Shown one piece after another: positions 41,786-61,562 of a stretch of 64,000 bases of DNA. Every line of letters begins with the position of its first letter. Positions within the stretch are counted from its first letter, which is position 1. The stretch lies in the NCBI GenBank assembly GCA_017427405.1, contig JAFRSV010000007.1, positions 5 through 64,004 on the forward strand, in the 5' to 3' direction. The notes under the pieces were generated by a model that saw only the letters and a program-made list of their open reading frames with translations, was not told the origin of the DNA and ran no database searches. This stretch comes from Alphaproteobacteria bacterium (GTDB taxonomy: Bacteria > Pseudomonadota > Alphaproteobacteria > Rs-D84). The position numbers and the translations under genes were made by a program.

Positions 41786-42367
41786 ATGAAAGAAAAGAAA
41801 ATGTCTTTGGAAGAAATGGTGCGGAAAATTGACGATTCGAAAAAGGTGAATCCGCTTGATTTATCGTCGGACCAGGATTTGTCCATCGCGCTGATGAATT
41901 TGGTGTCATTGGAAGAACATTTCTTTTTTAGTGGTGCCAAGACCAAGAAGCCCGGGTTCTATGATTTAATAAATGTTGTGCGGAATATGCGCAAGGAACT
42001 TATGGAACGAATCGTTGATAAAAACAAACACGACGGGGCGGAGGTTTGGTGTATATCGAAGCACCTGCTTGCGGCATCGATGCGTATTTACGAGGTTGGA
42101 ACAAAAGCACTGGGGGCCGGAAACAAGGCGGACGCGTATAAAATGTTTGAAAAAGCGTATGAGTTATATTCGCTCTTTTGGGGATTGAATATGGATATGA
42201 TTGATTTGGCCGGGGTAAAACAGATGGAACCGGTTTTGTATGATTCAGTGATAAAGGCGGATAAAAAAAGTGATAAGGCGGTAAAGGAAGAAATGGTGAA
42301 ATCCAAGTCAACAGTCCAGAAACTGGGCGATTGGGTAAAAAAGACGGTCAATTGTTGTATTGAATAA
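41786..42367 (+). CDS. Hypothetical soluble protein (193 aa)
   Basis: RBS AAAGGAAAGAAAA. Helical and Lys/Glu-rich, with no signal peptide. Ends in ...NCCIE. Confidence 0.55.
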   Translation: MKEKKMSLEEMVRKIDDSKKVNPLDLSSDQDLSIALMNLVSLEEHFFFSGAKTKKPGFYDLINVVRNMRKELMERIVDKNKHDGAEVWCISKHLLAASMRIYEVGTKALGAGNKADAYKMFEKAYELYSLFWGLNMDMIDLAGVKQMEPVLYDSVIKADKKSDKAVKEEMVKSKSTVQKLGDWVKKTVNCCIE

Positions 42368-42373
42368 TTTGGC

Positions 42374-42403
42374 TTGATTAAAATTCGTGATTTTTTCTAT
42401 AAT
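42374..42403 (+). promoter_or_regulatory. Near-consensus sigma70-type promoter of the five-gene fibre operon
   Basis: TTGATT (42374-42379), 18-nt spacer, TATAAT (42398-42403), 20 nt upstream of the TTG start at 42424. Confidence 0.6.
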
Positions 42404-42407
42404 CACG
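42386..42407. promoter_or_regulatory. Palindrome CGTGATT-N8-AATCACG overlapping the -10 box (candidate operator)
   Basis: Perfect 7-bp inverted repeat at 42386-42392 / 42401-42407. The CGTGATT half-site recurs in the giant-ORF promoter region and in the 63.5-kb leader. Confidence 0.45.
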
Positions 42408-42423
42408 TAAAGGGGAGTAAATT

Positions 42424-44712
42424 TTGATAGGAAGGATGGGAATTTTCGCTGGATGTGCGATTGCGGTGATTATGGCCGCAGTGGCCGATAACGCACAAAA
42501 TCCACGCGCCCTGTCCACCAATATCGACACAAAATCCGATACCAGGGTATTATCAAGAACGGCGACCGTTGGGGCGTTGACACGACGTGCGATTGGTGAA
42601 TCGCGGACACGCGCGGGCACATCGCCGCGTATGGCGGTGCAATCACGGCGTGGAACGGTGGGTGGCGAAACGCGCGCAGTCCCCGATTCGAATCGGACAT
42701 CAATTGCACGGTCGGGTGTGGCACAACCCGCAAATCCGCGGGGTGCGGCGCGCAGTGTGACGGGGCCAGTGGCGGGGATATCGCGGGCGGCGACAACGGC
42801 GCGCGCAACGGCGGTGTTTAATGATTTGTCCAAGATTGGTTCGGGATATGCCGCGTGTCGCGAATCGTATGCAACATGTATGGATCAAATGTGTGCCAAT
42901 GCAAATGATACCTATCGTCGGTGTTTTTGTAGTGATAAATTTTTGAAATTCCGCGATGTAGAAGAATCTTTGGACGAAGCGATGATCATGTTGCAACAAT
43001 TCCAAGATAATAATTTAGAGGCCATTGATAAAACTGCGGACGAAGTAAATGCCATGTATTCCGCCAGTATTGGCGAGGCAGCGATAAAACGCGACACCAG
43101 TGCGTCGGCAAGATTATTGGATAATATAACGAAACTGTTGTCGGGTGGCGGAACGAATTCGACCGCGACGAATATGAATAATTCCATTGGTATATTGGAT
43201 TTGGATTTTTCGGTGGACTTTGATGATGTTTGGTCGGGTGGCGGATTTTCGTTGTTTGATACGGGAAATCAAGATTTGTCCACGTTGGAAGGCACGGCGC
43301 TGTTTAATGCGGCACAGCGGCAATGCACACGCCTTACACAGAATCAATGTGAAAATAACGCAGTATTCACAATGTCGCGCAGTTCGTATAATATCCTTAT
43401 AAGTCAGGATTGTAATACATATGAAAAGGCATTGAACAAGAAAAAAGAAACCGTGGCCCAGGCGGTGCGGACGGCGGAGAAGTATCTGCGCGAAGCAAGA
43501 TTAGAAGAATATCGTGCGCATAATTCGATGGATGTGAATGAATGTTTGGCCAAGGTTCGGACGGCAATGTTGGCCAATACGGCGTGCGGGGAAAACTATA
43601 AACGGTGTTTGGACCCGACGGGTGCGTATATTAATGGTGCAACCGGTGAACCGATTTATTCGCCGCGGCTGTTTCAGTTGGAAAAGACCATAAAGTTGCC
43701 GGGTGTTACGGATGACAATATAAATACAGATATATTGGGCGTAAATTCAACCTATGAAAAATTCTTGGATGGTTATCGTCAATATGTGACCCAGCAACTT
43801 GATACTTGCCGCAGTATTGCTGATTTCGTATGGACGGAATTCAAACGTAATGCGATTATTGAAATTGCCCAGGCGCAGTCGAACAAGATAGAAGAAGTTA
43901 AATCATCTTGTGTTGACACAATTGCGGAATGTTATGATACGCAATCACAATCTCTTGTAAATTTAGGAAGCAAAAAGACGGCGACGACCGCGGGTGCGTT
44001 GGGACGTTATACCGCACGGGATATGTGCCGGGAACAGGTTATGGCGTGTGCAACATTATATAGCCGTGATGGTATGGATTGCACATTTGATGAACGTGGA
44101 CATATTAATAATGGTGGGACGTGCGGCCTTAGTTCATTGATAACTTATGTCAACACGGTTGATGATTTGATGGTTGTTGAAAAGTGCAAGGCGGCGGTCG
44201 ATGAATACTTGGCCGACCTTTGCACGCCGGATGATGATACATACGAATATCCGTATAAATGTAAGGGGTTAGGATCGGATACTTTGAAAGAATATATAAC
44301 GAATTATATTAATGAATATTGCGGTGATCCAATAGATAGAGATAAGAAACCAAGTGATGATGCGCAGTTAAGTGCCTATATAGATTCCGCAACGAATGAT
44401 ATTGTGGCGGAAATGCAATATGAACTTGCCGATATTTGCGAAGGTTTGGGTGGATATTGGCGTAATACCGCGCAAGATGGTGAGACGTCCTTTGATTTAT
44501 TCTATAACAATGTTTATGGCGGTACTGTAAATAATGGCTGGGGATATTGTTATGAAAATTCGGAACGGATGGCGTGCGAAAATTATGGTGATGAATATGC
44601 CGCGTGGAACGCATCAACACAGCAATGCACGTTTAACGATGATTGGTATAAAATGAAATGTCAACAATTGGATGGGGTTTACGAAGGTGGAATTTGTTAT
44701 ATACCGGAATAA
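42424..44712 (+). CDS. Secreted Cys-rich helical protein (762 aa), first gene of fibre operon
   Basis: TTG start 6 nt after GGGGAG (alternative ATG 42436). Signal peptide MGIFAGCAIAVIMAAVA. Arg/Thr/Ala/Gly-rich N-terminal tract, then more than 30 Cys in motifs such as YATCMDQMCANANDTYRRCFCS. Confidence 0.75.
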   Translation: MIGRMGIFAGCAIAVIMAAVADNAQNPRALSTNIDTKSDTRVLSRTATVGALTRRAIGESRTRAGTSPRMAVQSRRGTVGGETRAVPDSNRTSIARSGVAQPANPRGAARSVTGPVAGISRAATTARATAVFNDLSKIGSGYAACRESYATCMDQMCANANDTYRRCFCSDKFLKFRDVEESLDEAMIMLQQFQDNNLEAIDKTADEVNAMYSASIGEAAIKRDTSASARLLDNITKLLSGGGTNSTATNMNNSIGILDLDFSVDFDDVWSGGGFSLFDTGNQDLSTLEGTALFNAAQRQCTRLTQNQCENNAVFTMSRSSYNILISQDCNTYEKALNKKKETVAQAVRTAEKYLREARLEEYRAHNSMDVNECLAKVRTAMLANTACGENYKRCLDPTGAYINGATGEPIYSPRLFQLEKTIKLPGVTDDNINTDILGVNSTYEKFLDGYRQYVTQQLDTCRSIADFVWTEFKRNAIIEIAQAQSNKIEEVKSSCVDTIAECYDTQSQSLVNLGSKKTATTAGALGRYTARDMCREQVMACATLYSRDGMDCTFDERGHINNGGTCGLSSLITYVNTVDDLMVVEKCKAAVDEYLADLCTPDDDTYEYPYKCKGLGSDTLKEYITNYINEYCGDPIDRDKKPSDDAQLSAYIDSATNDIVAEMQYELADICEGLGGYWRNTAQDGETSFDLFYNNVYGGTVNNGWGYCYENSERMACENYGDEYAAWNASTQQCTFNDDWYKMKCQQLDGVYEGGICYIPE

Positions 44713-44727
44713 TAAAAGGGAAGAAAG

Positions 44728-47700
44728 ATGTTAAAGGGCTATAAAATTTTGACCAGTTTTTGCGTTATCTGCGCGACACTTTATGGTGGCGCGTATGGCG
44801 CGGCGAGTGTTCGGGGCGGTGCGACATCACGTGCCGGTTCGATACGGACACTTGGTGCGGGAACAACCGCATCGGTCAAGACAACGACAGCCAGGACGCA
44901 ACCCACCACGACCGCGGCCAATGCAAATACTGAAAGCACGGAATCCGTGGGCGGCATGCGTATGTCGCACGCAACGGGGCTTGGTGGGACAAAGTTACCG
45001 GGCAAGGTATCGGGAACATCAACATCATCGACGGCGTCGAACCAAAATGTTGCGGAACTTCGCCAGGCAATCGAACAACTGCGGAACGACTATGATGCGT
45101 TGGGGGAACAATATAACAATTTGCTGGGCGATGTATCGAATGTTTCCGACACGGCTCAGGTTGCGCATGAAACCGCGACGAATAATACAAATACACTTAC
45201 CGTTGTGCGCAGTGACCTTAGTGTCGCGAAATCTGATATCGAAGATTTAAAGGCGACCGGCGGTTTTGATGAAGAACGCGTGCAGGAGGCGTTGGATACA
45301 ACATTGGCCCAGCGGAATTATGCAACGCGCGGTGAATTGGCCGCAACCGATGCGGTGGCGCGTGGCGCGGTCCAGGTTGCAGATTTGTCGCAAACGTTGA
45401 ACGCATTAAATATCGCCGACAAAGATTATGTGGCAAGTCGCACCCAAGGTGTCGTGAACGATTCGCTTAATATCACATTGGAAAATTATTATACGAAAAA
45501 GCAGGTTAACGATGCCATTGATGTGGCAAAGGTCGGCATGGTTGATAAAAACTATGTTGATAATCAAATTGATGGTTTGGCGGCCAAAACCTATGTCGAT
45601 AATCGCGTGGCCAGTATTCAAACCGGTGTTAGCGAAGGCGCCGTCCAAGGAATTATCAATAATTCGATTGATACACGTTTGGGAAATTATTATACCAAGG
45701 GCGATATTGATAATGCCATTGTTGATGCAATTGGTGCCGCCAAAGATGGTATGGCCGACCGGGATTATGTTGATAACCAGGTTCGTGATTTGGCATCAAC
45801 GGAATATGTTAATGAAAAGGTTGCCGAAATAGAAAGTGGCGTTGATGCGGGCACACTTTACAATATCCTTGAAACCCGCGGGTATAAAACTAGCGCAGAG
45901 GTTCAGGGTATAGTGAACGATTCGATTAATAATACCGTGGCGAATTATTACACCAAGGGTCAGGTTGATAATGCGATTAAGGTCGCGAAAAACGGTATGG
46001 CCGATAGAAATTATGTTGATAATCAAATTGATGGTTTGGCACCGAAAAATTGGGTCAATACGGTTGTGGATGCCAAGGTTAATGCCCTGCCCTTGGGACT
46101 TGATCAAAACGCGGTCCAGGCCATGGTTGAAGGATATGGGTATAAAGATGAAGCCGGTGTTCAAGAAATGATAAACGCGTCCGGGCATGTAAAAACAAGC
46201 GAACTTCCGGATTTGATTAAACAATGGGCCCCAGGTGCGGAAATACAATATGCGGATGGGAAATTGTATTTTGTGGATAAGGATGGAAATGATCGTGTTG
46301 TTGATATCCGTGGGCTTGATGGCCAAGATGGTGCGCAGGTTGAAATTCAGCAAAACGATGGATGGATTCAATGGCATTATGAAGGTGATACAGAGTGGAA
46401 TAATTTGGTTGCTATGTCTGATTTGAAAGGTGCGGATGGAAAGTCTGTTGATATTGGCGTTATTTCAATGTCTGGAATTAAGAATGCCTTGGTATGGAAA
46501 AAAGAAGGCGAAACAAATTCAGATTGGAGATTTTTATACAATTTGGACGATATAAATGGTATCGATGGCTGTGGTGTTCGGGCGGAAAAAACATCTACTG
46601 AAATTGGAACAACGGTGACACTGTTAAAAGATTGTCCAGGGCAACAAGGCCACGGTGATGTCTTGGTTTCGTTTGATGTTTTAAATGGTGCTAAAGGAAC
46701 CGTTGATGATCAACAGATTATAGATGCATTAGAATCCAATAGTGATTTTATGCAATTAAGGCAGTTAAAAAATAAGGTGAATGATCCATCAACAGGATTG
46801 GAAAGTACATATAATTTGGTCGTTGACTTGTATGATAGAGTTGATCATGAAAAAACTGGTCTTGGTGCGACAAATACATTGGCGAATGATGCCTGGGACA
46901 AAGTTAAAGATTTGGATTATGGTGTTACGGCAAAAACTTATGTTAACAGCAGAATTGGCGAATTGGGTATTAATGGTGTTACGCATAGAGAGTTTGAAAG
47001 TGTTGCCGCCAAAATTGGTGACGTTGGCTATACAAATACAGTAAAGGATTATATTGATACCGCGATTGCCGGGGTCAATACGAATATCAAAGTAAGACAG
47101 GGTCGTGATGGTTATACATATATCTGTAAGACCGGAAATAATTGTACGGGTGAACCCGATATATATTCTGACGAATGGGCACGGATTTCTGTGGATGTGT
47201 CGGGTTATCTTAAAAAGGGTGATGCGGATGGGTATTATGCATCCATTTCCACCGAAGGTGTAGCAAATACGGCACAAACCACTGCGACCGAGGCAAAAAC
47301 CAGGGCGAATGATGCGTGGGCTAAGTTAGAAGATTTGGGCAACAATGTAACAGTAAAGAGTTACGTTGATGACTATGTTTCGAATATGGTGGGTAACCTT
47401 GGAATTGATTATATAACGGGTGAAAAATATACTGTTCGTGGTAAAATAGGTAATTTCCCGGGCACCGTTCAGGACTATATTGATACCAAAATCGCCAGCG
47501 TTAGCACAAATGTTCGTGTAGAGGTTGGTTGGGATGGTGGTACGTATATTTGTAAAAAGGGAAGCAGTTGCCAAACGCAAGCCGGCCCGTACAATACTGA
47601 TGAATGGGCGCGGGTAACCGTTGATATGTCGGATTATCTTACCGAAGATGATACAGATAAACTTTATGCGCCGATTTCGACTGTTGCCACCGCGAACGAG

Positions 47701-50697
47701 GCAAAGACCGCCGCCAACACTGCGCAACAAACCGCAAGCCAGGCACAGTCAACCGCGACCGCCGCACAGTCAACGGCGAACGATGCGTGGGGTAAGTTGA
47801 GTGGTCTTAGTGGGACGGTAAAGGACTATGTTGATGATAAGGTTGGGGCTACGGGGTTGGCTATTCGGGTTGAGACTGGTACTGACGGTTATACTTATAT
47901 TTGTACTGCAAGTAACTCGGACTGTCGTGATGGGCCGTCACAAAGTTCTTCTTATTGGAAGAAAATAGATTTTACTATACCTAGTGAATACCTTACGGAA
48001 ACCGAAGGTAACGCTTGGTATGCGCCAAAGGCGGAATATGCGCTGAAATCTGATATCGGTACATTGGGGGGCAGTTTCTCGAGTGTTGCGGACAAAATTG
48101 GGCTTAATAATAATAGTGATTGGACTAATTCGAATAAATCGGTGAAACAATATGTTGATGATAAGTTCAGCAGTATTAGCACAGATATTCAGGTAGAAAC
48201 CGGTACGGATGGGTTTACATATATTTGTAAGACCGGAAGTGGTTGTACGGGCGAACCGAGTCAAAATCCAAGTCAGTGGACTAAGGTTAATGTAGATTTG
48301 GGGACGTTGGGGACGAATCCGTCGTCTGGTCAGGTCTATAATGTCGCTCAGAAAATCGGTTTGACTGATGCTGCAAATGTAAATAAAACGGTTGTTGGGT
48401 ATATCAGTGAGCAGATTGGTTCGTTGGGGTCTTATTATGATACTAGTACATACACATATAAACCCTATGATGTAAAAACTTATATGCAGGCAAATTATGT
48501 TCCGCTTGCAAAACTTGGGGACGATATTAAGAATTCCGAACAAACTGTGGCGGCGTATATTGGGGGTAAGATCGGTGCCCTAGGAAATTATTATGATGCT
48601 GGTACATCTGGTTATGTGCCTTATGCCAGTGTAAAACAATATGTTGATAGTAATTTCGCATTAAAAAGCACTATTGGTGATTTGGGGGCATCTTATACCA
48701 CCGTTGCACAAAAAATAGGACTTACTGATAGTAATGCAAGCAAGACGGTAAAGCAATATGTTGATGAGGCTATCGGGAGTTTGGGGGGGAGTCATACAAG
48801 TGTTGCGGGGAAACTTGGACCTGCAATTGTCAATGGCAGTCAAACCGTGGCTGATTATATCACAGCACAACTTTCCACAGTTAGTACGAGTGTAATAGTC
48901 AGACCAAGTTCTAATGGTAATGATACGTATATTTGCACAGGTACGAATTGTACAACACATTACAATGATCCGGAAAATGATGGTGGCAATTGGACGAAAC
49001 TTAATGTTGATTTGACAGCAATAAATACGATACTTTCTGGGTTTGGAAGTGGTGATGATAAAATACCGACAGTAAAGGGTTATGTTGACGATAAGATCGG
49101 CACACTTGGTAAAATAGATTCTGCGACCAATGCGACCAGTGTTGCGGTAAAATTAGGCTCTGAGATTACCAGTGCAGAAAAAACAGTGGCGCAATATATC
49201 AATGATAAAATTGGTGATATGGGTGGGTATAATAACGGGGTGTATAATGTTTATTATAATGTTGCAAGCAAGATTGGTGATATAGGATCAACCCAAACCG
49301 TAAAGGGGTATGTTGATAATGCGATTAGTGGGTTGTCGAGTACTTATGCGGCAAAGAGTACGGAAGATACGGCGAATAATGCGTGGGATCGGGTAAAGAA
49401 TTTAGGCAAGGATGTGAATGGTGATGATTATACAACTGTTGCGGGGCGGCTTGGGTTTGGTACCGATAACAATACTAAAACTGTAAAGCAATATATTGAC
49501 GATAAGGTTGCGGATGTAAAACCGACTATTATGACGGAAACATATCAGGGAACAACGTATATCTGTTCGTCTGGTAATTGTACGAATCATGCACCAAATA
49601 CTGGTTGGGAAGAGTTGAGTGTTGATTTGTCTGCTTTGGATGACATAGAAGCGATACTTGACGGGTTTGGTGGAGAGGATGAACCGGAAAAAGTAAAGCA
49701 ATATGTGGATAATAAATTTGGTAATCTTGGCACGTACGTAAATGATAATGGTCAGACGCGTTCGTATTCCGTGGAGAATAAACTTGGTCTTCCGAGTGAT
49801 TATGCAAACAAGACGGTGACAAAATATATTGTCGATCGGCTTGGGTTCACAGACGACGATGCCAATAAAACCGTGGCGCAATATGTTGCGGAACACGCGG
49901 CAAGTGGTGGTGTACAGGTACAAACCGTTAGTGGGACAACATATATTTGTAGCGAGAATTGCGACGGTGTGGGTACCCCACCGTGTGCGGATGGTACGTA
50001 TCCGTCCACGTGTGGTTGGCAGAAGTTAGAGGTGAATTTGAACGGTTATGCCACAGAGCAATATGTTGATGATGCGATTGGTACGCTAGGTGGCGATTAT
50101 ACGAATGTTGGTGACAAGATTAATATTAATAGTGGAACGGTAAAATCCTATGTTGATGCGGTTGATAATAAAATTGGGAGTTTGGGATCTCGCGAGGTTG
50201 ATGGTGAGCAGAAACCGTATACCGTTGAAACAAAAATTGGTGGCATACCGGCCGTACAAACAATCAAAGAGTATATTGATAACAATATGCCGAATATTGA
50301 TGTACGACCAGGGACCGGCGATGAGAATAAGAACAAATTGTATATTTGCACAAAGCCGTCTTGTGATACAGAAAATATTCCTGGGGGGACCGATTCTGGT
50401 TGGATCGAACTTGATATTGCAAGTGCGATAAATTTAAGCCTTTATTTGACAAAAACTGATGCGGAGGATATGTACCTTAAACAAAATGGTATTAAATTGA
50501 AACGCGAAGGCAAGGATATCAAAATATGGGGTGGCGGTATTGCGCAAGGTAATGCTTACAAAGTTGCCGATGTTGAAGATTTGATGTGCGCATCGTATAG
50601 GATGGAAGAAATTGGGTCTGATGATCCGGCTTATCAGGCGGATAAAACATCTTTCCGGTTGGTTTGTGAAACAGTTAGCGAAGACGACAATGATTAA
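44728..50697 (+). CDS. Secreted fibre protein with tail-fibre-like repeats (1989 aa)
   Basis: RBS AAGGGAAG. Signal peptide MLKGYKILTSFCVICATLYGGAYG. Coiled-coil-like region. Three copies of NYYTK..(V/I)DNAI...DYVDNQ. Segment IQWHYEGDTEWNNLVAMSDLKGADG. Eight modules containing TYIC...C. Recurrent VK.YVD motifs. Confidence 0.85.
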   Translation: MLKGYKILTSFCVICATLYGGAYGAASVRGGATSRAGSIRTLGAGTTASVKTTTARTQPTTTAANANTESTESVGGMRMSHATGLGGTKLPGKVSGTSTSSTASNQNVAELRQAIEQLRNDYDALGEQYNNLLGDVSNVSDTAQVAHETATNNTNTLTVVRSDLSVAKSDIEDLKATGGFDEERVQEALDTTLAQRNYATRGELAATDAVARGAVQVADLSQTLNALNIADKDYVASRTQGVVNDSLNITLENYYTKKQVNDAIDVAKVGMVDKNYVDNQIDGLAAKTYVDNRVASIQTGVSEGAVQGIINNSIDTRLGNYYTKGDIDNAIVDAIGAAKDGMADRDYVDNQVRDLASTEYVNEKVAEIESGVDAGTLYNILETRGYKTSAEVQGIVNDSINNTVANYYTKGQVDNAIKVAKNGMADRNYVDNQIDGLAPKNWVNTVVDAKVNALPLGLDQNAVQAMVEGYGYKDEAGVQEMINASGHVKTSELPDLIKQWAPGAEIQYADGKLYFVDKDGNDRVVDIRGLDGQDGAQVEIQQNDGWIQWHYEGDTEWNNLVAMSDLKGADGKSVDIGVISMSGIKNALVWKKEGETNSDWRFLYNLDDINGIDGCGVRAEKTSTEIGTTVTLLKDCPGQQGHGDVLVSFDVLNGAKGTVDDQQIIDALESNSDFMQLRQLKNKVNDPSTGLESTYNLVVDLYDRVDHEKTGLGATNTLANDAWDKVKDLDYGVTAKTYVNSRIGELGINGVTHREFESVAAKIGDVGYTNTVKDYIDTAIAGVNTNIKVRQGRDGYTYICKTGNNCTGEPDIYSDEWARISVDVSGYLKKGDADGYYASISTEGVANTAQTTATEAKTRANDAWAKLEDLGNNVTVKSYVDDYVSNMVGNLGIDYITGEKYTVRGKIGNFPGTVQDYIDTKIASVSTNVRVEVGWDGGTYICKKGSSCQTQAGPYNTDEWARVTVDMSDYLTEDDTDKLYAPISTVATANEAKTAANTAQQTASQAQSTATAAQSTANDAWGKLSGLSGTVKDYVDDKVGATGLAIRVETGTDGYTYICTASNSDCRDGPSQSSSYWKKIDFTIPSEYLTETEGNAWYAPKAEYALKSDIGTLGGSFSSVADKIGLNNNSDWTNSNKSVKQYVDDKFSSISTDIQVETGTDGFTYICKTGSGCTGEPSQNPSQWTKVNVDLGTLGTNPSSGQVYNVAQKIGLTDAANVNKTVVGYISEQIGSLGSYYDTSTYTYKPYDVKTYMQANYVPLAKLGDDIKNSEQTVAAYIGGKIGALGNYYDAGTSGYVPYASVKQYVDSNFALKSTIGDLGASYTTVAQKIGLTDSNASKTVKQYVDEAIGSLGGSHTSVAGKLGPAIVNGSQTVADYITAQLSTVSTSVIVRPSSNGNDTYICTGTNCTTHYNDPENDGGNWTKLNVDLTAINTILSGFGSGDDKIPTVKGYVDDKIGTLGKIDSATNATSVAVKLGSEITSAEKTVAQYINDKIGDMGGYNNGVYNVYYNVASKIGDIGSTQTVKGYVDNAISGLSSTYAAKSTEDTANNAWDRVKNLGKDVNGDDYTTVAGRLGFGTDNNTKTVKQYIDDKVADVKPTIMTETYQGTTYICSSGNCTNHAPNTGWEELSVDLSALDDIEAILDGFGGEDEPEKVKQYVDNKFGNLGTYVNDNGQTRSYSVENKLGLPSDYANKTVTKYIVDRLGFTDDDANKTVAQYVAEHAASGGVQVQTVSGTTYICSENCDGVGTPPCADGTYPSTCGWQKLEVNLNGYATEQYVDDAIGTLGGDYTNVGDKININSGTVKSYVDAVDNKIGSLGSREVDGEQKPYTVETKIGGIPAVQTIKEYIDNNMPNIDVRPGTGDENKNKLYICTKPSCDTENIPGGTDSGWIELDIASAINLSLYLTKTDAEDMYLKQNGIKLKREGKDIKIWGGGIAQGNAYKVADVEDLMCASYRMEEIGSDDPAYQADKTSFRLVCETVSEDDND

Positions 50698-50712
50698 TTG
50701 AAGGGATGAAAA

Positions 50713-53700
50713 ATGAGAAAGAATATGATTTTGGGTATAATTGGTTTTGCTTTGGCATTGGTTTCGGGTGGACAGGTGTTTGCCGCATTGGGACCAAATG
50801 ATATTTCCATGGGAACATTTGCAATTCCCCTGCCCGGTTGTGCACCAGAAGTGACTATTGGCGACAAGGATACAAGTACCGGTTGCTATACCATGACGAT
50901 ACAAAGTAAAACACTTCAAAATGGTGTTTGCAGTAGCAGTGAAATATCCCCAACCACAAAACAGGTCTGTGATGGCAAGGATGGTGTCGGTGGCGAAGGG
51001 TGTAGTTCAAAAACCAATGTTACTGGTCCGGATAGTAACGGGTGCTATACGGTTACATTTCAGAAAATGAAGGTAGAAAATGAAGAATGTGTAGAGGATG
51101 GAGAGCCGTTAACTTATACAACTTGTGATGGGGCGACCGAAGTTGTAGATGAAAGGTATGTGCCGTATCCGCAGTCGATGACTTATGATACGGGAAACGA
51201 TGTTCAAATTGGACACGAGGGGTATCGTAGGTTAGAGATAAAGTTTAAGGGGGACGAAAATTCGCGGGTGCTGAAATTCCCGGATCTTTGTGAAGAAGGC
51301 GAGGATGTGGAAGGTCAGAGAATCAAGACATGTATCGCTCAGGGGAATGCCACAAGCTATCCTAATGCTGACGGCAGTCATAGTCTATATCTAACGGACG
51401 ATAAGTATGCTTTTGTTATTGGAGAATCGGAAAGTGGGTTCCCAAGATATGAATATACCGCCCCAAGGTCGGTGAGTGGTTCTGTGGTGGCAAAGGGTTT
51501 CACGCAAAAGGTGTACGCGTATACGGATGGGCGCAGGGTTACTGAGACCGGTGCGACAGATGAGTGTAAGGAATATGCGAAACCTAATGATCGGAGTGCG
51601 CGTGTTACAAAGTGCACCGTTCAAAGTTATCAGTATCCTTCGAATCTGTTGTCAACATGGGTGCCGGGTACTACAGAATATTGTTTGGGTAATCATCAAA
51701 GCGATTGTAGTCAATACACCTTGCTGGTTGGGGCGGTCGATGCGTGTGCGGGGTTGACATCGTCTGATGATGCATGGGAAACGAGAGTCGTTCATTCGGA
51801 ATCAGAATATGTTGAACATGTTTATAATACAGGTTGTACGACAAATTGCACTGGAACCGTTGGATATAAATTAATCAAGGAAGAGATGTGCAATGGGGAT
51901 GTCAATGAAAGTACGAATTTGGATCCGTGTGAGTATGCGACACTGCCTGTGGGTGTTACGTGTGGATCTGGCTATGCATATCAAAGTTGCACACCGCAAG
52001 TGACTGCCTCTGGTTCAACGGCGAGCGCGTATTATGGATGTTTTCCGGATAATTGGAGCGATTTTGCACACAAGAATGATATAGTGCCGGCAAATTTTGC
52101 ATCAGATGGCACTAATCTGTATTGGTGTCAAATTCAAGATTGTGAAAATACGTCTGCTTGCTGGATTGGTGTCAATAAGGCAAATGGGCCAAACCCAAGT
52201 GGGCAATCCGATGGTACTAATTGTTGGGGCGTTGTGTCTATAGATGGACTTCAGGGTGACGCGGGCCCGGGATGTTCGTTTGCCTATTATAACGATAAAT
52301 GGCAGGTGTGTTGTTTGCCGGTCGATTCATCGGGTAATATTAATGTGAATGGTCAGTGGGATTGTAAAGAAGTCACAGATTCCAGCATTTTAAACCAGTT
52401 AAATAATTGGATGTGCAAACCAACGTATACCACAAAATATATAAACAAGAAATCTGATGGAACTTATGAATACAAACCAACGGACACCAATAATAGAACC
52501 GCTGCAACGGTTGGTGTTAGGACAACAATAACAAATTGTGACGGGACAAATGGTGGTGATGTTGATGTGTTTGATGGTCCGGCAGGGGATGATTATGATC
52601 CGTGTGATGGTTTGACGGCGGGAAGTCAGGCGGCACAAACAACGATACTAAATCAAACAAAAGTGTATCGTTCACATCAATATTCAAACAATCACTATAG
52701 CCCTGCGCGTGGGTATTATGAAACGACGGTTACATATTGCGAAGGTAGCGCAACAACCTATACACCAGCGGATGAATGCACGCCTGTGGCGGATGCAAGG
52801 TTGGCACGTAGCACGGGTCAGAGTTGTGCCGACAACCAGGTATTAAAGCGTTGCACGCCACAAGAGGGAACGCAAACACCGTATTTTATATGTGATACAA
52901 CCGAAGTAAGCGGTTATCCAAAGAAAAAGTATTTTGTGCCCACAATTGAAAATGGGAAAATTACCAAAGAGGGTTATACCGCATGGGTGCATAAGTATAC
53001 CAGTACTGGGACAGAAATAGAAGGCGACTTGGCAGATAAAGACGAATGTCACACGGTTTATAAGGTGCAACATTCGAGGTCTGGGGATAATAATGAAATA
53101 TTAACGGCGACGACGCAAACCACACAGAAATGTACTGTGCAAAGTTATACATATCCTAACCCTTCTTCGCCGTGGACAGTGGGCGCGACATATTGCAAGA
53201 ATACAAATGCAAGTGGTAGTTGCACTGGATATAGTGACAGTATTTCGGATTCAGAAACATCGACATTGAAATATAGAGCGCCACTTTTGTCTTCGAGTGA
53301 TTCTGGAGTTCCGGTTAGTGCGGGGTATACGTACTATGATGTGACGGATGGAGATGATGTAAGTGTTCGCGAAATAATAGGCGTAAAAGATGAGTGTTGG
53401 CCGGTTTATAGGACATCAAGTGTTGCGACGACTTATCCGGAAATGACCTGGAAATGCGAGGTTCAATACCCCGGTGATACAACCTCTGGTGCGACATATA
53501 TAACCGGTTACAAATATTGTCTTAATATTACAAACGAAGTGTGTGGAAATTATCAAACAACGCCACCGCAAGAGTTGGATCAATGTAATGGCGGCACTTC
53601 TGCGACAGCGGTTAAAAAGGTGGTGAGTCGGACATACACACGCACCACGGGTAGCCAAGGGGCTTTGACATCGGTGTACAAGATGTGTAACGATGATGAT

Positions 53701-54957
53701 CATGCTGAAACTACACCAGATGAATGCTATGAAATCCCGACCCCGGCTGGTGAAACTTGTACGAACGGTGTTTGGATGCAGTGTAAGCGCCAGGCCGATG
53801 AAGGAACTGCGTCTGCGACGGCACGTGGAACGACTTATGGGTACTGTGCAACATATCCGCAGTGTGTCGGTAACGAGAATTCGACAACCATAGTCAAAAA
53901 GACAGAACGGGCGTATACGGCACCAACTAAAACTGGAACAAATTCTTACTATGATACGCCCGGTAAAATGGTTACAAACAAGATTCCGTGCAGTTCAAGT
54001 GCAAGCGCCATAGTTGATTCGTCAGAGGATGACCAGTGCGAAGAAATTCCGGATACGGGTTCAATATGCCCGACGAATAAGGTGCTTAAGAGTTGCAAAC
54101 GCAAGGGTGATGAAAGTGCCACATTGAAGGCCGAATCGACATATAACCTTTGCACAACCGGAACGTCAATATTTGATTCTATTTCTGAAAACGATCCGTG
54201 CGGGGGGGATACAACCAGTGATAACGCGAAGAAAAAAGTCAAAAGTATTCAATACGAATATGTTACCCCGGTTTCTGAAACCCAATCAAAACGTGTCGGG
54301 TATAGTGTAAAGACGACGACGATGTGTAACCCAGCCGGAAATACAACTGAGTACATATACGATACTTGTGAACCACTTGCGGCAAGTGATAATTGTAAAA
54401 ACGGGACAACGTACAAGCCGTATTATAAATGTCATAAACAGATGTATGATGCCACCAGTGCAAATGCATCGAATCGCGAGTATAATGCATGTGATCCTTT
54501 GTCGGCGGCGGTGGCGTTGTCCAGTGCGGTTGCAAACAAGTTGGATAGTGATGTCACGTTTTCGACTGGGACATATGAAAACAAAGATTATATTTTGATG
54601 AGTGCGGGTGGGGTGACCAATAAACCGGTTGTGGCGGTTGATACTTTGAAACCACAGTCGTTGTTCAGCATTTGGAAAGAACAGTATAAGGAATTGTCAT
54701 CGACAAAATGTCAGGCATTGTTTGGTAAGTCAGATTGTGAGACAGGGTTGAATGAAACAGATATGCTGGGCAATATCAACGCCTATGGTGTTTGGAAAAC
54801 GGATCAGGTTGTTAATAAGGACAATACAACTGCTACGGATTTAACGTTTGATAAGTATCAAGAGAGTTTGCAACCGTGCCAGGGTGGAATTTCTATTACA
54901 GCGGACGGACAAGATGAGAATGGCGGAAATAAATATAAGATGACTTGTACGGAATGA
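50713..54957 (+). CDS. Secreted Cys-rich repeat protein (1414 aa), paralog family with the next two genes
   Basis: RBS GAAGGGA. Signal peptide MRKNMILGIIGFALALVSGGQVFA. Repeated D.C(E/Y).(I/P)...C......C modules. The C-terminal ~150 aa are homologous to the C-terminus of the 575-aa protein (both end ...GGNKY.MTCTE). Confidence 0.85.
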   Translation: MRKNMILGIIGFALALVSGGQVFAALGPNDISMGTFAIPLPGCAPEVTIGDKDTSTGCYTMTIQSKTLQNGVCSSSEISPTTKQVCDGKDGVGGEGCSSKTNVTGPDSNGCYTVTFQKMKVENEECVEDGEPLTYTTCDGATEVVDERYVPYPQSMTYDTGNDVQIGHEGYRRLEIKFKGDENSRVLKFPDLCEEGEDVEGQRIKTCIAQGNATSYPNADGSHSLYLTDDKYAFVIGESESGFPRYEYTAPRSVSGSVVAKGFTQKVYAYTDGRRVTETGATDECKEYAKPNDRSARVTKCTVQSYQYPSNLLSTWVPGTTEYCLGNHQSDCSQYTLLVGAVDACAGLTSSDDAWETRVVHSESEYVEHVYNTGCTTNCTGTVGYKLIKEEMCNGDVNESTNLDPCEYATLPVGVTCGSGYAYQSCTPQVTASGSTASAYYGCFPDNWSDFAHKNDIVPANFASDGTNLYWCQIQDCENTSACWIGVNKANGPNPSGQSDGTNCWGVVSIDGLQGDAGPGCSFAYYNDKWQVCCLPVDSSGNINVNGQWDCKEVTDSSILNQLNNWMCKPTYTTKYINKKSDGTYEYKPTDTNNRTAATVGVRTTITNCDGTNGGDVDVFDGPAGDDYDPCDGLTAGSQAAQTTILNQTKVYRSHQYSNNHYSPARGYYETTVTYCEGSATTYTPADECTPVADARLARSTGQSCADNQVLKRCTPQEGTQTPYFICDTTEVSGYPKKKYFVPTIENGKITKEGYTAWVHKYTSTGTEIEGDLADKDECHTVYKVQHSRSGDNNEILTATTQTTQKCTVQSYTYPNPSSPWTVGATYCKNTNASGSCTGYSDSISDSETSTLKYRAPLLSSSDSGVPVSAGYTYYDVTDGDDVSVREIIGVKDECWPVYRTSSVATTYPEMTWKCEVQYPGDTTSGATYITGYKYCLNITNEVCGNYQTTPPQELDQCNGGTSATAVKKVVSRTYTRTTGSQGALTSVYKMCNDDDHAETTPDECYEIPTPAGETCTNGVWMQCKRQADEGTASATARGTTYGYCATYPQCVGNENSTTIVKKTERAYTAPTKTGTNSYYDTPGKMVTNKIPCSSSASAIVDSSEDDQCEEIPDTGSICPTNKVLKSCKRKGDESATLKAESTYNLCTTGTSIFDSISENDPCGGDTTSDNAKKKVKSIQYEYVTPVSETQSKRVGYSVKTTTMCNPAGNTTEYIYDTCEPLAASDNCKNGTTYKPYYKCHKQMYDATSANASNREYNACDPLSAAVALSSAVANKLDSDVTFSTGTYENKDYILMSAGGVTNKPVVAVDTLKPQSLFSIWKEQYKELSSTKCQALFGKSDCETGLNETDMLGNINAYGVWKTDQVVNKDNTTATDLTFDKYQESLQPCQGGISITADGQDENGGNKYKMTCTE

Positions 54958-54988
54958 TCTAAGTAGTTTAAGATGGCGAAGGTATAAA

Positions 54989-56716
54989 ATGAGGAAGAGT
55001 TGGTTTGTTGGGGCGATTTTGACCACATTTGTGGCAGGTGTTGCAAATGCTGAGTATACGATAGGTCGTTTTACTGCCCCAAGGGGTGCGACCGGTGCCA
55101 CGGGTGGCACAGGTTCGACAGGACCTGAGGGGCCAGCGGGACCGCAGGGGTGCAGTGTGAGTGCATCAAAGTCGAATATTTATCAAAACCCCAGTGATCC
55201 AACTAGTCGTGTGGTTGGAACACATGTTGTGTTAACCGATTCTTGTAATAGTGAAAATAATCAAGAGTTTGATGTTAATCATGGAAATGATGGAACATCG
55301 TTTAATTTTAAGGGCAAAAAGGATACTTGTGCTGAATTAGAGGCGATTACAGGGGCACAACAGAATGATGCCTGGTTGGTAGCTGAAGATGGATTGCTTT
55401 ATATTTATAATGGAACGAGTTTCCCATCTTGCCCAAATGGTGGGGCGGCGTTTACGGGGCCCGCCGGTGAAGGTGTGTGCACAAATGTTTCCACGCCGTC
55501 GACGGCGGTAAAGAATACTGTGCGGTCGTATAGCGGGCCAAGTGGTCCACATACTGTTACTGTAAGTGGCACGTCATATACATATTATGATGTGGCGGGG
55601 CATATAACCCTTACGCATCATATGTGCAGTGGTAGTAGCAATGACGATACATCGGATACCCAGGACGATAGGTGTGTTCCCGTGGTTGCGCCAAATGGGG
55701 TTTGCACGGGTAAGACATATTATGAATGTAAGACACAGGCGGCGACCACTGGTTGGACCGCGGCGCAGGTTTATTATTTGTGTGTTGCAACGACTTATAG
55801 TTCGGTTACAAGTGCGATTGATAATCCGTGTATGGGGGTGGCATCAGGTAATCTTTCAACAACCGAAAGAACCCAAACTACGGCATATACTGTGCCGAAT
55901 GGTAGCAAGACCACGATTGGAGGTTACTCTTATTATACCAACAATCCGGGTAAAATAGTAACAACCAGTGTTAAATGTGATCCGGGGACAGGTGGTGCCA
56001 ACAATACGGTGATAGGTAGTGTGCAAGATGACTGTGATGAAATTGAAAAACCGAACACAAGTGTTTGCGCAAATGCGTCTAAGAAGTTCTACAAGTGCAG
56101 GCCGCAAGGCAAGATAGGTAGTTCCACGGATCCATATTATATTTGCACAAGTCCATTGGGTGAATCTGTGCTGGATGCGATTGGCACGGTGGCTGCCGAT
56201 GTGTCCACCGTTTCCGGTAAGGTTACTACGTTGGAAACCACGGTTGGAAATAGTACCAGTGGCTTGGTTCAACAAACAAATAATCTGGAAGCATCCGTTG
56301 CAAATAAATTGAACAAGGATGTTAGTTTTTCCAAGGCAAACGGATATATAACGATGAGTGCGACCGGAATATCAACCCCGGTAAATGTTGTGGCGGTTGC
56401 GGATATCAAGGGTGATCCTGGCAGTAACGGCGCGTCGGCATTGGAGCTTTGGCAGGAGCAACAGACCGATAACGCCACGTGTCAAAAATTGTTTGGCAAA
56501 AACTGTAATGCCTTGGGGTTAACAGAGTTTATGCAGGACATATCAGACTATGGCGTTTGGGCGCGTGCGGAATATCAGGCAAATGGTGCAAATGCAAATG
56601 TGTCGCGTTCGGCGTATCGTGCAACATTGCAACCGTGTCAGGGTGGAATTACGCTTACACCAAATGGGACGGATGGTAGTGGTGGAAATAAGTATACTAT
56701 GACCTGTACAGAATAA
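54989..56716 (+). CDS. Secreted collagen-like/Cys-rich fibre protein (575 aa)
   Basis: Signal peptide MRKSWFVGAILTTFVAGVANA. Seven GXY triplets (GATGATGGTGSTGPEGPAGPQG). Segment GNDGTSFNFKG...LLYIYNGTSFPSC..FTGPAGEG. Two Cys-rich modules and the conserved C-terminal domain. Confidence 0.85.
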   Translation: MRKSWFVGAILTTFVAGVANAEYTIGRFTAPRGATGATGGTGSTGPEGPAGPQGCSVSASKSNIYQNPSDPTSRVVGTHVVLTDSCNSENNQEFDVNHGNDGTSFNFKGKKDTCAELEAITGAQQNDAWLVAEDGLLYIYNGTSFPSCPNGGAAFTGPAGEGVCTNVSTPSTAVKNTVRSYSGPSGPHTVTVSGTSYTYYDVAGHITLTHHMCSGSSNDDTSDTQDDRCVPVVAPNGVCTGKTYYECKTQAATTGWTAAQVYYLCVATTYSSVTSAIDNPCMGVASGNLSTTERTQTTAYTVPNGSKTTIGGYSYYTNNPGKIVTTSVKCDPGTGGANNTVIGSVQDDCDEIEKPNTSVCANASKKFYKCRPQGKIGSSTDPYYICTSPLGESVLDAIGTVAADVSTVSGKVTTLETTVGNSTSGLVQQTNNLEASVANKLNKDVSFSKANGYITMSATGISTPVNVVAVADIKGDPGSNGASALELWQEQQTDNATCQKLFGKNCNALGLTEFMQDISDYGVWARAEYQANGANANVSRSAYRATLQPCQGGITLTPNGTDGSGGNKYTMTCTE

Positions 56717-56748
56717 AATATAAAGAAGATAAATAGAGAGGATAAAAA

Positions 56749-59007
56749 ATGAAAAGAAAAATTTTTGTTTTTACGATTTTGGGGGCTTGCGTGACCATGC
56801 CAGTGATGGCGGATTATATAATAGGTGACTTTATTGCACCAAAAGGGGCGGATGGTATAAATGGTACTAATGGGACGAATGGAACGGATTGCAGACCGAC
56901 CGAGACCAGGACCCGTTGTTATGGAACGGGAAGTAGTAAATGTGATGATTCAACGCGCAGTGGGGTTAAAATCGTGACAACACAGTGTGATGGCAGTGGT
57001 TCAACAACTTCGTATATATACGATAATAATTGTGGAATTACGGTTGCAAGCACTACGGATGTACACCAAGATGACGATGCAACAAAACCGGTCACGCATA
57101 AGAGGGTGACGTTCAAAAATACATGCACGGACGAGACATTGTCAACAACGGCGGATGTGCCGGCGGGCTGTACACCTACATATACCACAAAATATATAAA
57201 CAAGGAGACAAATGGTACCTATTCTTATAATAATTCCTCTAGGAGTGAAAATACCGTTGGGGCGCGTACAACTGTGTCGGGTTGCGGGACAGATACAACC
57301 TTTGATACATATGATGGTAATGATGGAACGTCGTTCAATTATATGGGATCGGTTGCAAGTTGTAGTGCTTTGAATAATGTTTCTAATCCGGCACAAAACG
57401 ATGCGTATATAGTCAATGGTGATGGAAATGGAAAGTTATGTATTTATAATGGTAGTTCTTGGCCAACATGCCCAAGTGGTTGTGCGGAATTTACCGGACC
57501 GGCGGGTGATAATAATTGCACAGGTTTTGAAAGTTCAACAACAGCGGTAAAGAACACATTGCGGACATATAGTGGTCCGTCGGATCCCACAACAAATGGT
57601 GACGTAACATTTTATGCGACACGTGGAAAAATGGTGTTAACACATAAAATGTGTAATACAAGTTTGGATGATACGGTTGATAATGAAAACGATCCATGTG
57701 TTCCGATTATTGCGCCCAGTGGTGTTACGTGTAATGGAACATATATGGAATGCAAACGCGGTGACAATTCATCGTTATATAATGTGTGCGAGGCAACAAC
57801 TGGAACAACATTTTCATCGGCGTTGAGCAATAAAGAAGATGCGGTCTGTGTTGGAACAAATGCTAATTTATCATCGGTGGAAAGGAAAAAAACGGTTTCG
57901 TATACTGCGCCGACGGGTTCCGGGTCTTATGGGACGTATTCTTGGAAAACGGCGGTTGGTAAAGTTGTAAACAAGAGCATAAAATGTGATAACAGTGAAA
58001 CAACAATAAGTTCAACGCCGGATAAGTGTGAAGAAGAAATTGCAAAACCAAATGGTGTTTGCGCTGAAAATGGTAAAGTCTATTATAAATGCACACAACA
58101 AAATGATGGTACCGAGTACAATCTTTGTGCAGATGGTACATCGGTATTGGGTGCAGCACAGAGCGCAGCACAAAGTGCGGCGGAAACGGCCGTGGCGGCG
58201 GTGGACCCGTGTGCGGGGAATACGAATTCTTCTACAATAATAAAAACAACATCAACGACGGCGTATAGTCGGGGGACGAAAAGCAGTGAGGTTTATTCGA
58301 CTATTGGTAAAAAGACCGTTACAAAAACGGCATGCAATGGGGATACGTACACGACAGACGAACAAGACGATTGTATAGAGGTTGCTAAACCGACGAATGT
58401 GTGTACTGGGGCAACGTCGGCATATTTGCGTTGTTATAATGCCCAGGCAAGTTCGGACAAAACATACTATGTGTGTCAAGATTTGGGGACAAATAATAAT
58501 TCATTAGCAAATAAAATTGATGCCAAGGCGGATGCGAGTACGGTAACCACGCTTTCTGGCAAGATAACAACGGCAGAAAATAATATATCAACCTTACAAA
58601 CCACGGTAAACAACAAGGCAGATGCAAGTGCGGTTACACTGTCTGCATTAGCAAATACTTTGGGAAACACGTATTTAAAACCAAGTGATACCATTTCCAC
58701 AAGCCAATTACCAAGCAATGTGGTAACAACAACTGACGGAAAGATTAATGCTGGGGTCTTGCCGTCCACGGTTATTACAACAACAAATCTTGGGAATCAA
58801 TTACAAACAGGTGGGGCGTTGGCAAGTGTCGTGACAAATGATACGCTTAAACAACAAATTCTTGATACTTCTGTTTTGGGGGAATGCAGCACAGATACAA
58901 CAGCTGATAAAGTGACGACAACGTGCACTTCTGGTAGCATAATGGCACAAATTTATGACCAGTTGAAAGATGCTATTGATGCCGCTGGAAATAGTAGTAG
59001 AAATTAA
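56749..59007 (+). CDS. Secreted collagen-like/Cys-rich fibre protein (752 aa)
   Basis: Signal peptide MKRKIFVFTILGACVTMPVMA. Five GXY triplets (GADGINGTNGTNGTD). Paralogous GNDGTSFNYMG...LCIYNGSSWPTC..FTGPAGDN segment. Three Cys-rich modules. C-terminal Ala/Thr/Asn-rich fibre-like tail (LANKIDAKADASTVTTLSGKITTAENNISTLQ). Confidence 0.85.
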   Translation: MKRKIFVFTILGACVTMPVMADYIIGDFIAPKGADGINGTNGTNGTDCRPTETRTRCYGTGSSKCDDSTRSGVKIVTTQCDGSGSTTSYIYDNNCGITVASTTDVHQDDDATKPVTHKRVTFKNTCTDETLSTTADVPAGCTPTYTTKYINKETNGTYSYNNSSRSENTVGARTTVSGCGTDTTFDTYDGNDGTSFNYMGSVASCSALNNVSNPAQNDAYIVNGDGNGKLCIYNGSSWPTCPSGCAEFTGPAGDNNCTGFESSTTAVKNTLRTYSGPSDPTTNGDVTFYATRGKMVLTHKMCNTSLDDTVDNENDPCVPIIAPSGVTCNGTYMECKRGDNSSLYNVCEATTGTTFSSALSNKEDAVCVGTNANLSSVERKKTVSYTAPTGSGSYGTYSWKTAVGKVVNKSIKCDNSETTISSTPDKCEEEIAKPNGVCAENGKVYYKCTQQNDGTEYNLCADGTSVLGAAQSAAQSAAETAVAAVDPCAGNTNSSTIIKTTSTTAYSRGTKSSEVYSTIGKKTVTKTACNGDTYTTDEQDDCIEVAKPTNVCTGATSAYLRCYNAQASSDKTYYVCQDLGTNNNSLANKIDAKADASTVTTLSGKITTAENNISTLQTTVNNKADASAVTLSALANTLGNTYLKPSDTISTSQLPSNVVTTTDGKINAGVLPSTVITTTNLGNQLQTGGALASVVTNDTLKQQILDTSVLGECSTDTTADKVTTTCTSGSIMAQIYDQLKDAIDAAGNSSRN

Positions 59008-59023
59008 ATTAACCCACACAAAG

Positions 59024-59050
59024 CCGTCACCAAGATTGGTGGCGGTTTTT
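59024..59050. terminator. Rho-independent terminator closing the fibre operon (may serve both convergent genes)
   Basis: CCGTCACC-AAGATT-GGTGGCGG hairpin followed by TTTTT. Lies 17 nt after the operon stop and 15 nt from the stop of the convergent XRE gene. Confidence 0.75.
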
Positions 59051-59064
59051 GTTAGCAAAATATA

Positions 59065-59478: not shown

Positions 59479-59540
59479 TGTTAGTCCCTTTGGTATGATA
59501 TATTTCCTATTGTCGTTTTTATACAATAATTTTTTTTGTT

Positions 59541-59569
59541 TTGCAATCAAAAAAGCCTTGTGTTATTAT
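59541..59569 (+). promoter_or_regulatory. Candidate gpmI promoter
   Basis: TTGCAA (59541-59546), 17-nt spacer ending in TGT, TATTAT (59564-59569), 24 nt upstream of ATG 59593. Confidence 0.5.
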
Positions 59570-59592
59570 GTTTTCAATATGGGAGAAAAGAT

Positions 59593-61559: not shown

Positions 61560-61562
61560 TTT

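Follow-up and report, generated by a model that had tools for sequence, protein, structure and literature searches.

Phage tail fibres and receptor-binding proteins are long and modular, with a conserved N-terminal attachment part, variable distal parts and exchange of modules. In the nap of the Bacillus exosporium, the collagen-like protein BclA docks by an N-terminal motif on a cysteine-rich basal layer of ExsY/CotY and BxpB; chlamydiae possess a cysteine-rich outer membrane complex made of OmcA, OmcB and MOMP. YadA-family trimeric autotransporters form long repetitive fibres with coiled coils and short repeated motifs, and variable adhesin hot-spot loci keep a conserved frame around variable exported proteins that are gained and lost between close relatives. 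The locus described here lies in a 64-kb stretch of chromosome (the window, meaning the whole stretch of DNA analysed) from Candidatus Enterousia, an uncultured gut alphaproteobacterium of the order Rs-D84, and comprises five co-oriented genes, O1 to O5. It consists of two layers: O1 is conserved, and O2–O5 are optional, lineage-specific cargo between O1 and a convergent XRE-type regulator gene. Judging from the sequences, the region may be best explained as a cassette, specific to the lineage, that encodes disulfide-stabilised fibres of the envelope or surface and lies beside the gene for a conserved exposed protein, O1, a reading to which we assign a rough probability of 0.5. Variable loci that encode exported proteins resembling fibres or adhesins are a known kind; undescribed are the protein families and N-terminal motifs of this one, its anchor gene O1 and the clade that carries it. 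The features concerned are, by position in the window:

41212-41760, plus strand: S1, small multi-pass membrane protein, CPVC right behind the signal peptide and further conserved Cys
41786-42367, plus strand: S2, 193 aa, no signal peptide, C-terminus NCCIE, conserved upstream neighbour
42374-42403, plus strand: promoter-like TTGATT-N18-TATAAT in the 56-nt gap between S2 and O1, the region's top match (10/12)
42424-44712, plus strand: O1, 762 aa, TTG start
42487-42828, plus strand: O1 aa 22-135, disordered Arg/Ser/Ala/Thr-rich repeats ('ARSAT/VSRSAT' type) with invariant Arg positions
44221-44709, plus strand: O1 aa 600-762, hypervariable C-terminal domain, the best-modelled part (pLDDT, predicted local distance difference test, 71-89)
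44728-50697, plus strand: O2, 1989 aa, class A
46285-46578, plus strand: O2 aa 520-617, tail-fibre-like stretch (tblastn against phages)
47080-50472, plus strand: O2 aa 785-1915, eight [T/L]YIC..C modules (regular expression)
50713-54957, plus strand: O3, 1414 aa, class B
54989-56716, plus strand: O4, 575 aa, class B
55085-55156, plus strand: O4 aa 33-56, Gly-X-Y (GXY) run of 8 triplets
56749-59007, plus strand: O5, 752 aa, class B
56845-56889, plus strand: O5 aa 33-47, GXY run of 5 triplets
59023-59053, plus strand: terminator-like stretch with hairpin and T-run at 59023-59043, 16 nt past the O5 stop, between the convergent O5 and XRE
59065-59550, minus strand: XRE-type helix-turn-helix gene (Pfam HTH_3), the downstream border of the variable slot

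Phage tail fibres and receptor-binding proteins are in logic the closest analogues, and the likeness extends beyond general layout. A stretch of O2 (aa 520–617, 5% of the protein) aligns with Erwinia, Pantoea and Pseudomonas phages at 32–37% identity (tblastn against 50,697 phage records, E down to 7e-7), and the match in Erwinia phage Fifi011 falls in gp33, a tail fibre protein of 792 aa; the best matches of an AlphaFold2 (AF2) model of O4 in BFVD are phage tail fibre, minor tail and collagen-repeat proteins (8 at E≤1e-3, local probabilities up to 1.0). Unlike phage fibres, O1–O5 carry predicted Sec signal peptides, occupy a fixed chromosomal site, are not accompanied by virion genes and match no PHROG, and no phage counterpart of their six-cysteine and TYIC modules was found. 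The exosporium is a second analogue in logic, with a short N-terminal targeting motif, a collagen-like run, a globular distal domain and a disulfide-rich basal protein. However, no relation in sequence or fold to it was detected, Enterousia is a non-spore-forming diderm, the GXY runs measure 5–8 triplets, and docking is putative here. The resemblance to the chlamydial complex, in that a diderm with a reduced genome and dependence on a host exports Cys-rich envelope proteins, is functional only: homology to OmcB or OmcA was absent (Pfam, NCBIfam), and O2–O5 are dispensable, hypervariable, fibre-like and repeat-based. With the YadA family the locus shares long repetitive fibres, coiled coils and short repeated motifs, trimers being only probable here; by contrast, O1–O5 lack a C-terminal beta-barrel anchor and any head, neck or stalk Pfam domain (no match to YadA_anchor, stalk or head at E≤1), and their conserved part is N-terminal. 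The adhesin hot-spots are similarly organised, and the locus differs from them in showing no invertases, no inverted repeats, no within-species variation and only undescribed families.

O1 and the variable slot behind it

Enterousia has been placed in the uncultured order Rs-D84, with genomes of about 0.75–1.0 Mb; the cells are rods with peptidoglycan and without flagella, lack the tricarboxylic acid cycle and a respiratory chain, and have an incomplete glycolysis (PMC12306168). Standard transporters are missing too, a partner-dependent life has been proposed, and the lineage and its order occur widely in the guts of ruminants, birds and humans (PMC12306168). A profile of O1 matched 250 genomes in a set of species representatives. 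The 80 that were kept are recorded as Candidatus Enterousia or 'uncultured Alphaproteobacteria', and were obtained from ruminants, chickens, horses, rabbits and humans.

The order dnaE-rsmH-(S1)-(S2)-O1-slot-XRE-gpmI is kept in 87 related loci, the position of XRE being retained in 59. What varies is the slot. Between the end of O1 and XRE lie 50–183 bp (empty) in 10 loci, about 0.9–2.0 kb in 37 and 3–9 kb in 12, as against 14.3 kb in the window. Slots of 1–2 kb encode just one protein, about 400 aa long, with a signal peptide and 5–6% Cys, whose family is present in 47 loci and typical of the more distant Enterousia-like species; it is unrelated to O2–O5 and has motifs similar to those of epidermal growth factor (EGF) domains ('CVWLCRDGWTGPEC'), for example at L006:12407-13600. 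Empty slots occur at all phylogenetic depths, including two loci (L014 and L033) whose DnaE is 94–96% identical to that of the window, and the layout O1-O2-O3-(O4)-O5 is found only in the nearest species (L010, L012, L013, L093 and L095), with O4 absent from L094 and L095. Divergence climbs steeply along the operon: identity to L010 is 98% for DnaE, 96% for RsmH, 97% each for S1 and S2 and 91% for O1, then 58% for O2, 55% for O3, 38% for O4 and 34% for O5. An earlier interpretation of this DNA (the sequence-only reading) had taken the locus for a self-contained, chromosomally fixed set of five genes. This view did not survive the comparison, only O1 being conserved across the 87 loci while slot content varies, and the five-gene synteny that it proposed to look for in relatives proved to be confined to the closest species, with gene number varying even there.

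The diversity of the slot is one between species. Contigs from at least 5 ruminant samples (L001–L005) are 99.98–100% identical to the window over 10–19 kb (44989–64000, covering O2–O5 and downstream sequence), and the coding sequence of O4 is identical on contigs from several ruminant gut metagenomes. Within the species or population the cassette is thus stable, hypervariable as it looks.

At least 976 close homologues of O1 itself were found, and among 1.84 billion representative proteins its family counts 806 at the 50% identity level. Its layout comprises a signal peptide, a mature N-terminus of the form 'APxNPR', about 100 aa of disordered repeats, a helical domain and a C-terminal alpha/beta domain; in the AF2 model, residues 1–135 have pLDDT values below 50 and aa 136–670 are largely helical. 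In 49 sequences 48–91% identical to O1, 28 Cys of the mature protein are invariant, and each close relative examined retains all of them. The rest of the protein is conserved unevenly, with identities across relatives of 58–97% in the core (aa 150–550), 27–60% in the N-terminal region and 34–79% in the C-terminal 160 residues; distant family members align only at profile positions of about 20–590 and differ in their C-termini. The family is held together by the 28 Cys, the 'APxNPR' start, Arg-rich disorder and the place between rsmH/S1/S2 and XRE/gpmI, all of which were found. O1 thus appears to be a clade-defining gene whose product is predicted to be exported by Sec and, to go by its 28 invariant Cys, could form up to 14 disulfides. 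A conserved Cys scaffold with fast-changing ends is what would be expected of an oxidatively folded, exposed protein.

No match of the O1 model to the PDB was found with Foldseek (best E 0.89). Two other assignments were rejected: membership of the dcw cluster, suggested by the position behind rsmH, on account of the neighbouring dnaE and gpmI; and a lipoprotein, because the 'FAGC' sequence lies too near the start and an AXA-type site is present instead. One distant relative of O1 (P0271, 1176 aa, L090:10001-13531) has a different genomic setting: it is divergent from a DUF3078 gene and a gene similar to that for the Protochlamydia outer membrane protein Pom, with genes for PBP1a and an alpha-2-macroglobulin nearby.

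Operon anatomy and the modular cargo proteins

O1–O5 form a genuine operon, probably with a single transcript. As the sequence-only reading had stated, five co-oriented open reading frames (ORFs) follow each other with gaps of 15, 15, 31 and 32 nt. Each start is preceded by a purine-rich motif resembling a ribosome-binding site, and each of the five N-termini shows K/R, then a hydrophobic core, then an AXA-like site at about residue 21–24. This last result comes from our own heuristic, a scan for putative Sec-type non-lipoprotein export (n-region, h-region and AXA, with neither lipobox nor twin-arginine), whose three sequence elements were seen in O1–O5. The promoter and terminator by which the operon was said to be bracketed are in place as sequences, but neither class of site is enriched: 55 promoter-like matches compare with 50.1 in shuffled sequence, and 19 terminator-like matches with 17.3, so that the two sites are plausible by position and not by statistics. 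Decay into pseudogene remnants, a possibility that had been raised, does not agree with hundreds of full-length O1 homologues or with the homologues of O2–O5 in sister species. Cys residues number 29 in O1 (more than 30 had been announced), 24 in O2, 68 in O3, 20 in O4 and 33 in O5, and the GC content of the region equals that of its flanks, with no anomaly.

The two small upstream ORFs, correctly noted earlier but treated as flank, turn out to be conserved, standing next to O1 in most relatives. S1 is kept between rsmH and O1 in most of them and absent from some lineages; by its sequence, it could be a putative dedicated thiol-disulfide oxidoreductase for its Cys-rich neighbours. S2 is 95–98% identical in near relatives, which exceeds the conservation of every gene from O1 to O5. 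Both are uncertain members of the system. C-termini of the form Cys-x(1-4)-Glu recur at the locus, in O1 ('...ICYIPE'), O3 and O4 ('...MTCTE') and S2 ('...NCCIE'), possibly by chance.

The cargo proteins fall into two classes, with rules drawn from the subclade in which O1 is at least 52% identical to that of the window. Class A, which includes O2, is encoded by the first gene of the slot; its members are Cys-poor, 270–2000 aa long, and carry R[AS]G[ST][LI]R about 10–20 residues past the signal peptide, often followed by 'SRMA'. The N-terminus of O1 holds a similar stretch, 'TRAGTSPRMAV'. In O2 (1.2% Cys), the signal peptide and the motif, here 'RAGSIR', are followed by a coiled-coil-like segment, NYYTK/YVDNQ repeats, the phage-fibre-like module and the TYIC array. 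The repeats and eight TYIC modules reported earlier were all recovered: there are 3 NYYTK, 3 [D/N]YVDNQ and 8 [T/L]YIC modules (at 797, 939, 1056, 1164, 1400, 1610, 1738 and 1871), the latter interleaved with about 24 copies of 'TVKxYVDxxI'. At the DNA level these repeats form families (D3, D4, D6 and D8) whose copies are 65–80% identical.

Each class A gene of the subclade is followed by 1–3 class B genes, and the N-terminal motifs and the order of A then B were found again in about 20 loci. Class B proteins, among them O3, O4 and O5, have a signal peptide, the motif [IM]Gx[FI]xxPxGxxG, often a short GXY run, and 3–5% Cys. Their alignment shows a conserved N-terminus, a knob ('GTSFNxxG...NDAYxV...GKLxIYxGxxWPxCP') after the collagen-like run, a module of about 100 aa with six conserved Cys in varying copy number, and two alternative C-termini, one of the O3/O4 type and one of the O5 type. 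O3 has the signal peptide, an N-terminal 'MGTFAIP' and 68 Cys. O4 consists of signal peptide, 'IGRFTAPRGATG' motif, 8 GXY triplets, knob, two six-Cys beta modules, a helical segment and an O3-type C-terminus; O5, of signal peptide, 'IGDFIAPKGADG' motif, 5 GXY triplets, three six-Cys modules and the alternative C-terminus, in which 'LPSxVVTT' repeats precede CT..TTCTSGS. The sequence-only reading had given all three proteins GXY runs and a common C-terminal domain. The runs stand for O4 and O5 and fall for O3, where none of at least 4 triplets is present, and the common domain is restricted to O3 and O4 (O3 875–1414 aligns with O4 94–575, DNA repeat family D5), the end of O5 being different. 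The beta modules of O4 are modelled with confidence. Against the PDB, Foldseek returned only a weak local match of this model, to the trimerisation domain of collagen XVIII (probability 0.91, E 0.55, 42 columns); on the model, the class B knob may resemble such a trimerisation domain.

Modules have been shuffled. In three relatives (L007, L024 and L028) one protein joins an O2-like N-terminus, a TYIC module, an 'IQW' module and Cys modules like those of O3–O5; in one relative the fused protein of A and B modules has 1215 aa. The O4 family is small, with only 21 homologues among 5.8 billion proteins, and the three class B relatives on Joint Genome Institute (JGI) metagenome contigs are all encoded in this slot.

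None of these proteins could be assigned to a described family. Searches of O1–O5, S1 and S2 against Pfam, NCBIfam, PHROGs and PADLOC returned nothing significant, for S1 and S2 no match at all in Pfam or NCBIfam; sequence searches of the PDB with O2, the O1 profile and the class B profile gave nothing; and the 2.9 million viral contigs of IMG/VR contain no relative of O1, O2, O4 or class B. No match to Pfam Collagen (PF01391) was obtained at E≤1. Usher, chaperone and sortase domains are absent from the locus and its flanks and LPXTG from the C-termini, RTX and ABC exporter domains were found neither in O1–O5, whose N-termini look to be of Sec type, nor in the flanks, and no toxin, peptidase or nuclease domain was recognised (Pfam, NCBIfam, PADLOC). 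Pfam annotation of the 64 kb revealed no phage genes but an ordinary housekeeping chromosome, as in the related loci, and neither the window nor those loci contain genes for tail tube, sheath, baseplate, terminase, capsid or integrase. In these respects the sequence-only reading was borne out: it had recognised no phage, usher, type I or type V secretion or sortase genes at a chromosomal site among housekeeping genes, had failed to match the architecture to a described system, and had pointed to fibre-like, collagen-like and tail-fibre-like modules, which are indeed present as the O2 repeats, the GXY runs and the viral matches of O4. Full-length homology to a prophage tail-fibre cassette with phage genes nearby was looked for as well, and the similarity stops at the 5% of O2 described above.

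Fibres, lattice and other explanations

From these data we infer the following scheme for a cassette of envelope or surface fibres. A single transcript would start at the promoter-like site and end at the terminator-like hairpin, and O1–O5 would cross the inner membrane via Sec and then fold oxidatively. Proteins of classes A and B may assemble into elongated fibres, probably trimeric, within the envelope or at its surface; trimers are proposed because of the coiled-coil-like segment, the GXY runs with the knob and the resemblance to fibres of phages. Their N-terminal motifs would serve as handles for docking or assembly, either on O1 or on some envelope component that they share, O1 itself being pictured as a disordered Arg-rich N-terminal tether, a helical core and a fast-evolving C-terminal head. 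This head and the variable distal parts of the fibres may bind ligands on partner cells, host or particles, and module swaps with gain and loss of genes in the slot could alter specificity or help to evade phages or immunity. A bolder version, which we consider clearly less likely than not, is that Rs-D84 has its own undescribed, clade-specific, modular surface-fibre system, with O1 as base and with class A fibres and class B tips that would be swapped like phage tail fibres and thereby set the partner or surface to which the cell attaches.

Several observations count against the fibre-cassette reading. Variation among the samples (at least 5) is nil, with no sign of active switching within the species, and no inverted repeats, invertible segments, cassettes or repeats like those of diversity-generating retroelements (DGRs) were found in the region; the repeats that are present are old in-frame module duplications only, 65–80% identical. 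O2–O5 are dispensable, and whether they are present does not clearly track the type of O1 C-terminus, so that the case for docking on O1 reduces to linkage. The AF2 models of O1 and O4 are of modest confidence (pLDDT 60.8 and 57.7), and the structural matches of both have low template modelling (TM) scores, as would be expected, for the viral matches of O4, of extended multi-domain proteins. The signal-peptide calls for O1–O5 are heuristic. Finally, no translocator or other route through the outer membrane was found, and a periplasmic site is thus possible in this diderm host.

This last point leads to the most serious rival, a disulfide-cross-linked lattice in the periplasm or at the outer membrane, similar to the chlamydial complex, in place of external fibres. 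The very high Cys content with conserved positions, predicted Sec signals with no outer-membrane export system in sight, the universal presence of O1 in the clade, the distant O1-like gene next to a Pom porin-like gene, and the further Cys-rich exported proteins encoded in the genome would all suit such a lattice. It is less easily reconciled with cargo that is dispensable and evolves extremely fast, and with the hypervariable termini of O1; module shuffling and alternative C-termini are more in keeping with proteins that are exposed and face ligands than with a scaffold inside, and the fibre-like and collagen-like modules also favour exposure. We consider the lattice rather unlikely but a serious competitor, since the organism is a diderm and no translocator was found. 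The idea that all five proteins are obligate parts of one fixed, self-contained apparatus for extracellular fibres or adhesion draws on the tight, co-oriented genes within one promoter-like and terminator-like pair and on the same gene order in the five nearest loci. It is already contradicted by synteny and is improbable: O1 directly precedes XRE in the two close relatives with empty slots, the unrelated protein of about 400 aa replaces O2–O5 in most of the clade, O4 can be missing, and S1 and S2, outside the proposed unit, accompany O1 more constantly than O2–O5 do.

Conserved N-termini with alternative or variable C-termini, in a cassette gained and lost between species, also recall secreted toxins or effectors of the polymorphic kind, whose C-terminal payloads can be exchanged. 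Since toxin, peptidase and nuclease domains are lacking, the gaps of 15–32 nt are too small for immunity genes, no partner of type V, VI or VII secretion or of contact-dependent inhibition (CDI) was seen, and most of these proteins are made of repetitive structural modules, this is quite improbable. Least probable, and very improbable, is a prophage tail-fibre cassette, domesticated or in decay, or else the remnant of a tailocin. The tail-fibre-like stretch of O2, the resemblance of the O4 model to phage fibre and collagen-repeat proteins, and a conserved N-terminus with a variable C-terminus as in phage receptor-binding proteins are what it could explain. However, 64 kb without a phage gene, flanked and filled by argS, ruvB, tolQR, secA, dnaE, rsmH, gpmI, rsmD and the L25 gene, the same chromosomal position in about 87 species, the empty searches of PHROGs and viral contigs, the confinement of phage-DNA similarity to one-twentieth of O2, a GC content as in the flanks, and predicted Sec signal peptides, which are atypical of virion fibres, all speak against it.

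O1 and its slot are a testable candidate for the determinant of attachment or specificity in a widespread, genome-reduced gut lineage; should the proteins turn out to be periplasmic, the locus would suggest instead that an anaerobic alphaproteobacterium has built an unusual envelope on disulfides. Several large families are also in need of names, namely O1, class A, class B and the slot protein of about 400 aa.

Genomic setting and other features of the window

The window carries, in this order, argS, a two-component system, ruvB, tolQ, tolR, the RNase P RNA, an ORF of 6849 aa, secA, dnaE, rsmH, S1, S2, O1–O5, the convergent XRE gene, gpmI, a gene for a tadA-like deaminase, rsmD and the L25 gene. 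The presence of tolQ and tolR indicates that the organism is a diderm. The following features lie outside the operon:

537-613, minus strand: tRNA-Pro(GGG)
662-3745, minus strand: exported Cys-rich protein, 1027 aa, with EGF-like Cys spacing by eye
12738-13083, minus strand: RNase P RNA, class A, 182.8 bits
13220-33769, plus strand: giant ORF, 6849 aa, 157 Cys, signal-like N-terminus (MSRFLRFF...) and Flg_new (Listeria-Bacteroides) repeats

The tolQ (MotA_ExbB) and tolR (ExbD) genes, at 10780-12385 on the plus strand, are followed by an ORF of 252 aa that belongs to no clear family and is possibly tolA; the RNase P RNA and the giant ORF then stand in place of tolB or pal. The 1027-aa protein had no Pfam match at E≤1e-3, and its C-terminus looks OmpA-like by eye ('DGYTDPDPI...SQARAEMV'). 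That it might be a paralogue of O1 was ruled out (hhalign probability 0.5%).

The giant ORF occupies about 20.5 kb in a lineage with genomes below about 1 Mb, and homologues of 3031 and 4605 aa lie at the same site upstream of secA in two relatives (L006 and L007). Together with the operon of about 16.6 kb, its 20.5 kb amount to roughly 4% of such a genome, devoted to exported, Cys-rich, repetitive proteins that fit no known family. In a further relative the slot behind O1 is filled by a protein of 2200 aa with 68 Cys (L061:13884-20486), whose signal peptide (MSRFLRFCAF...) resembles that of the giant ORF, which suggests that members of the giant-protein family may also fill the slot.

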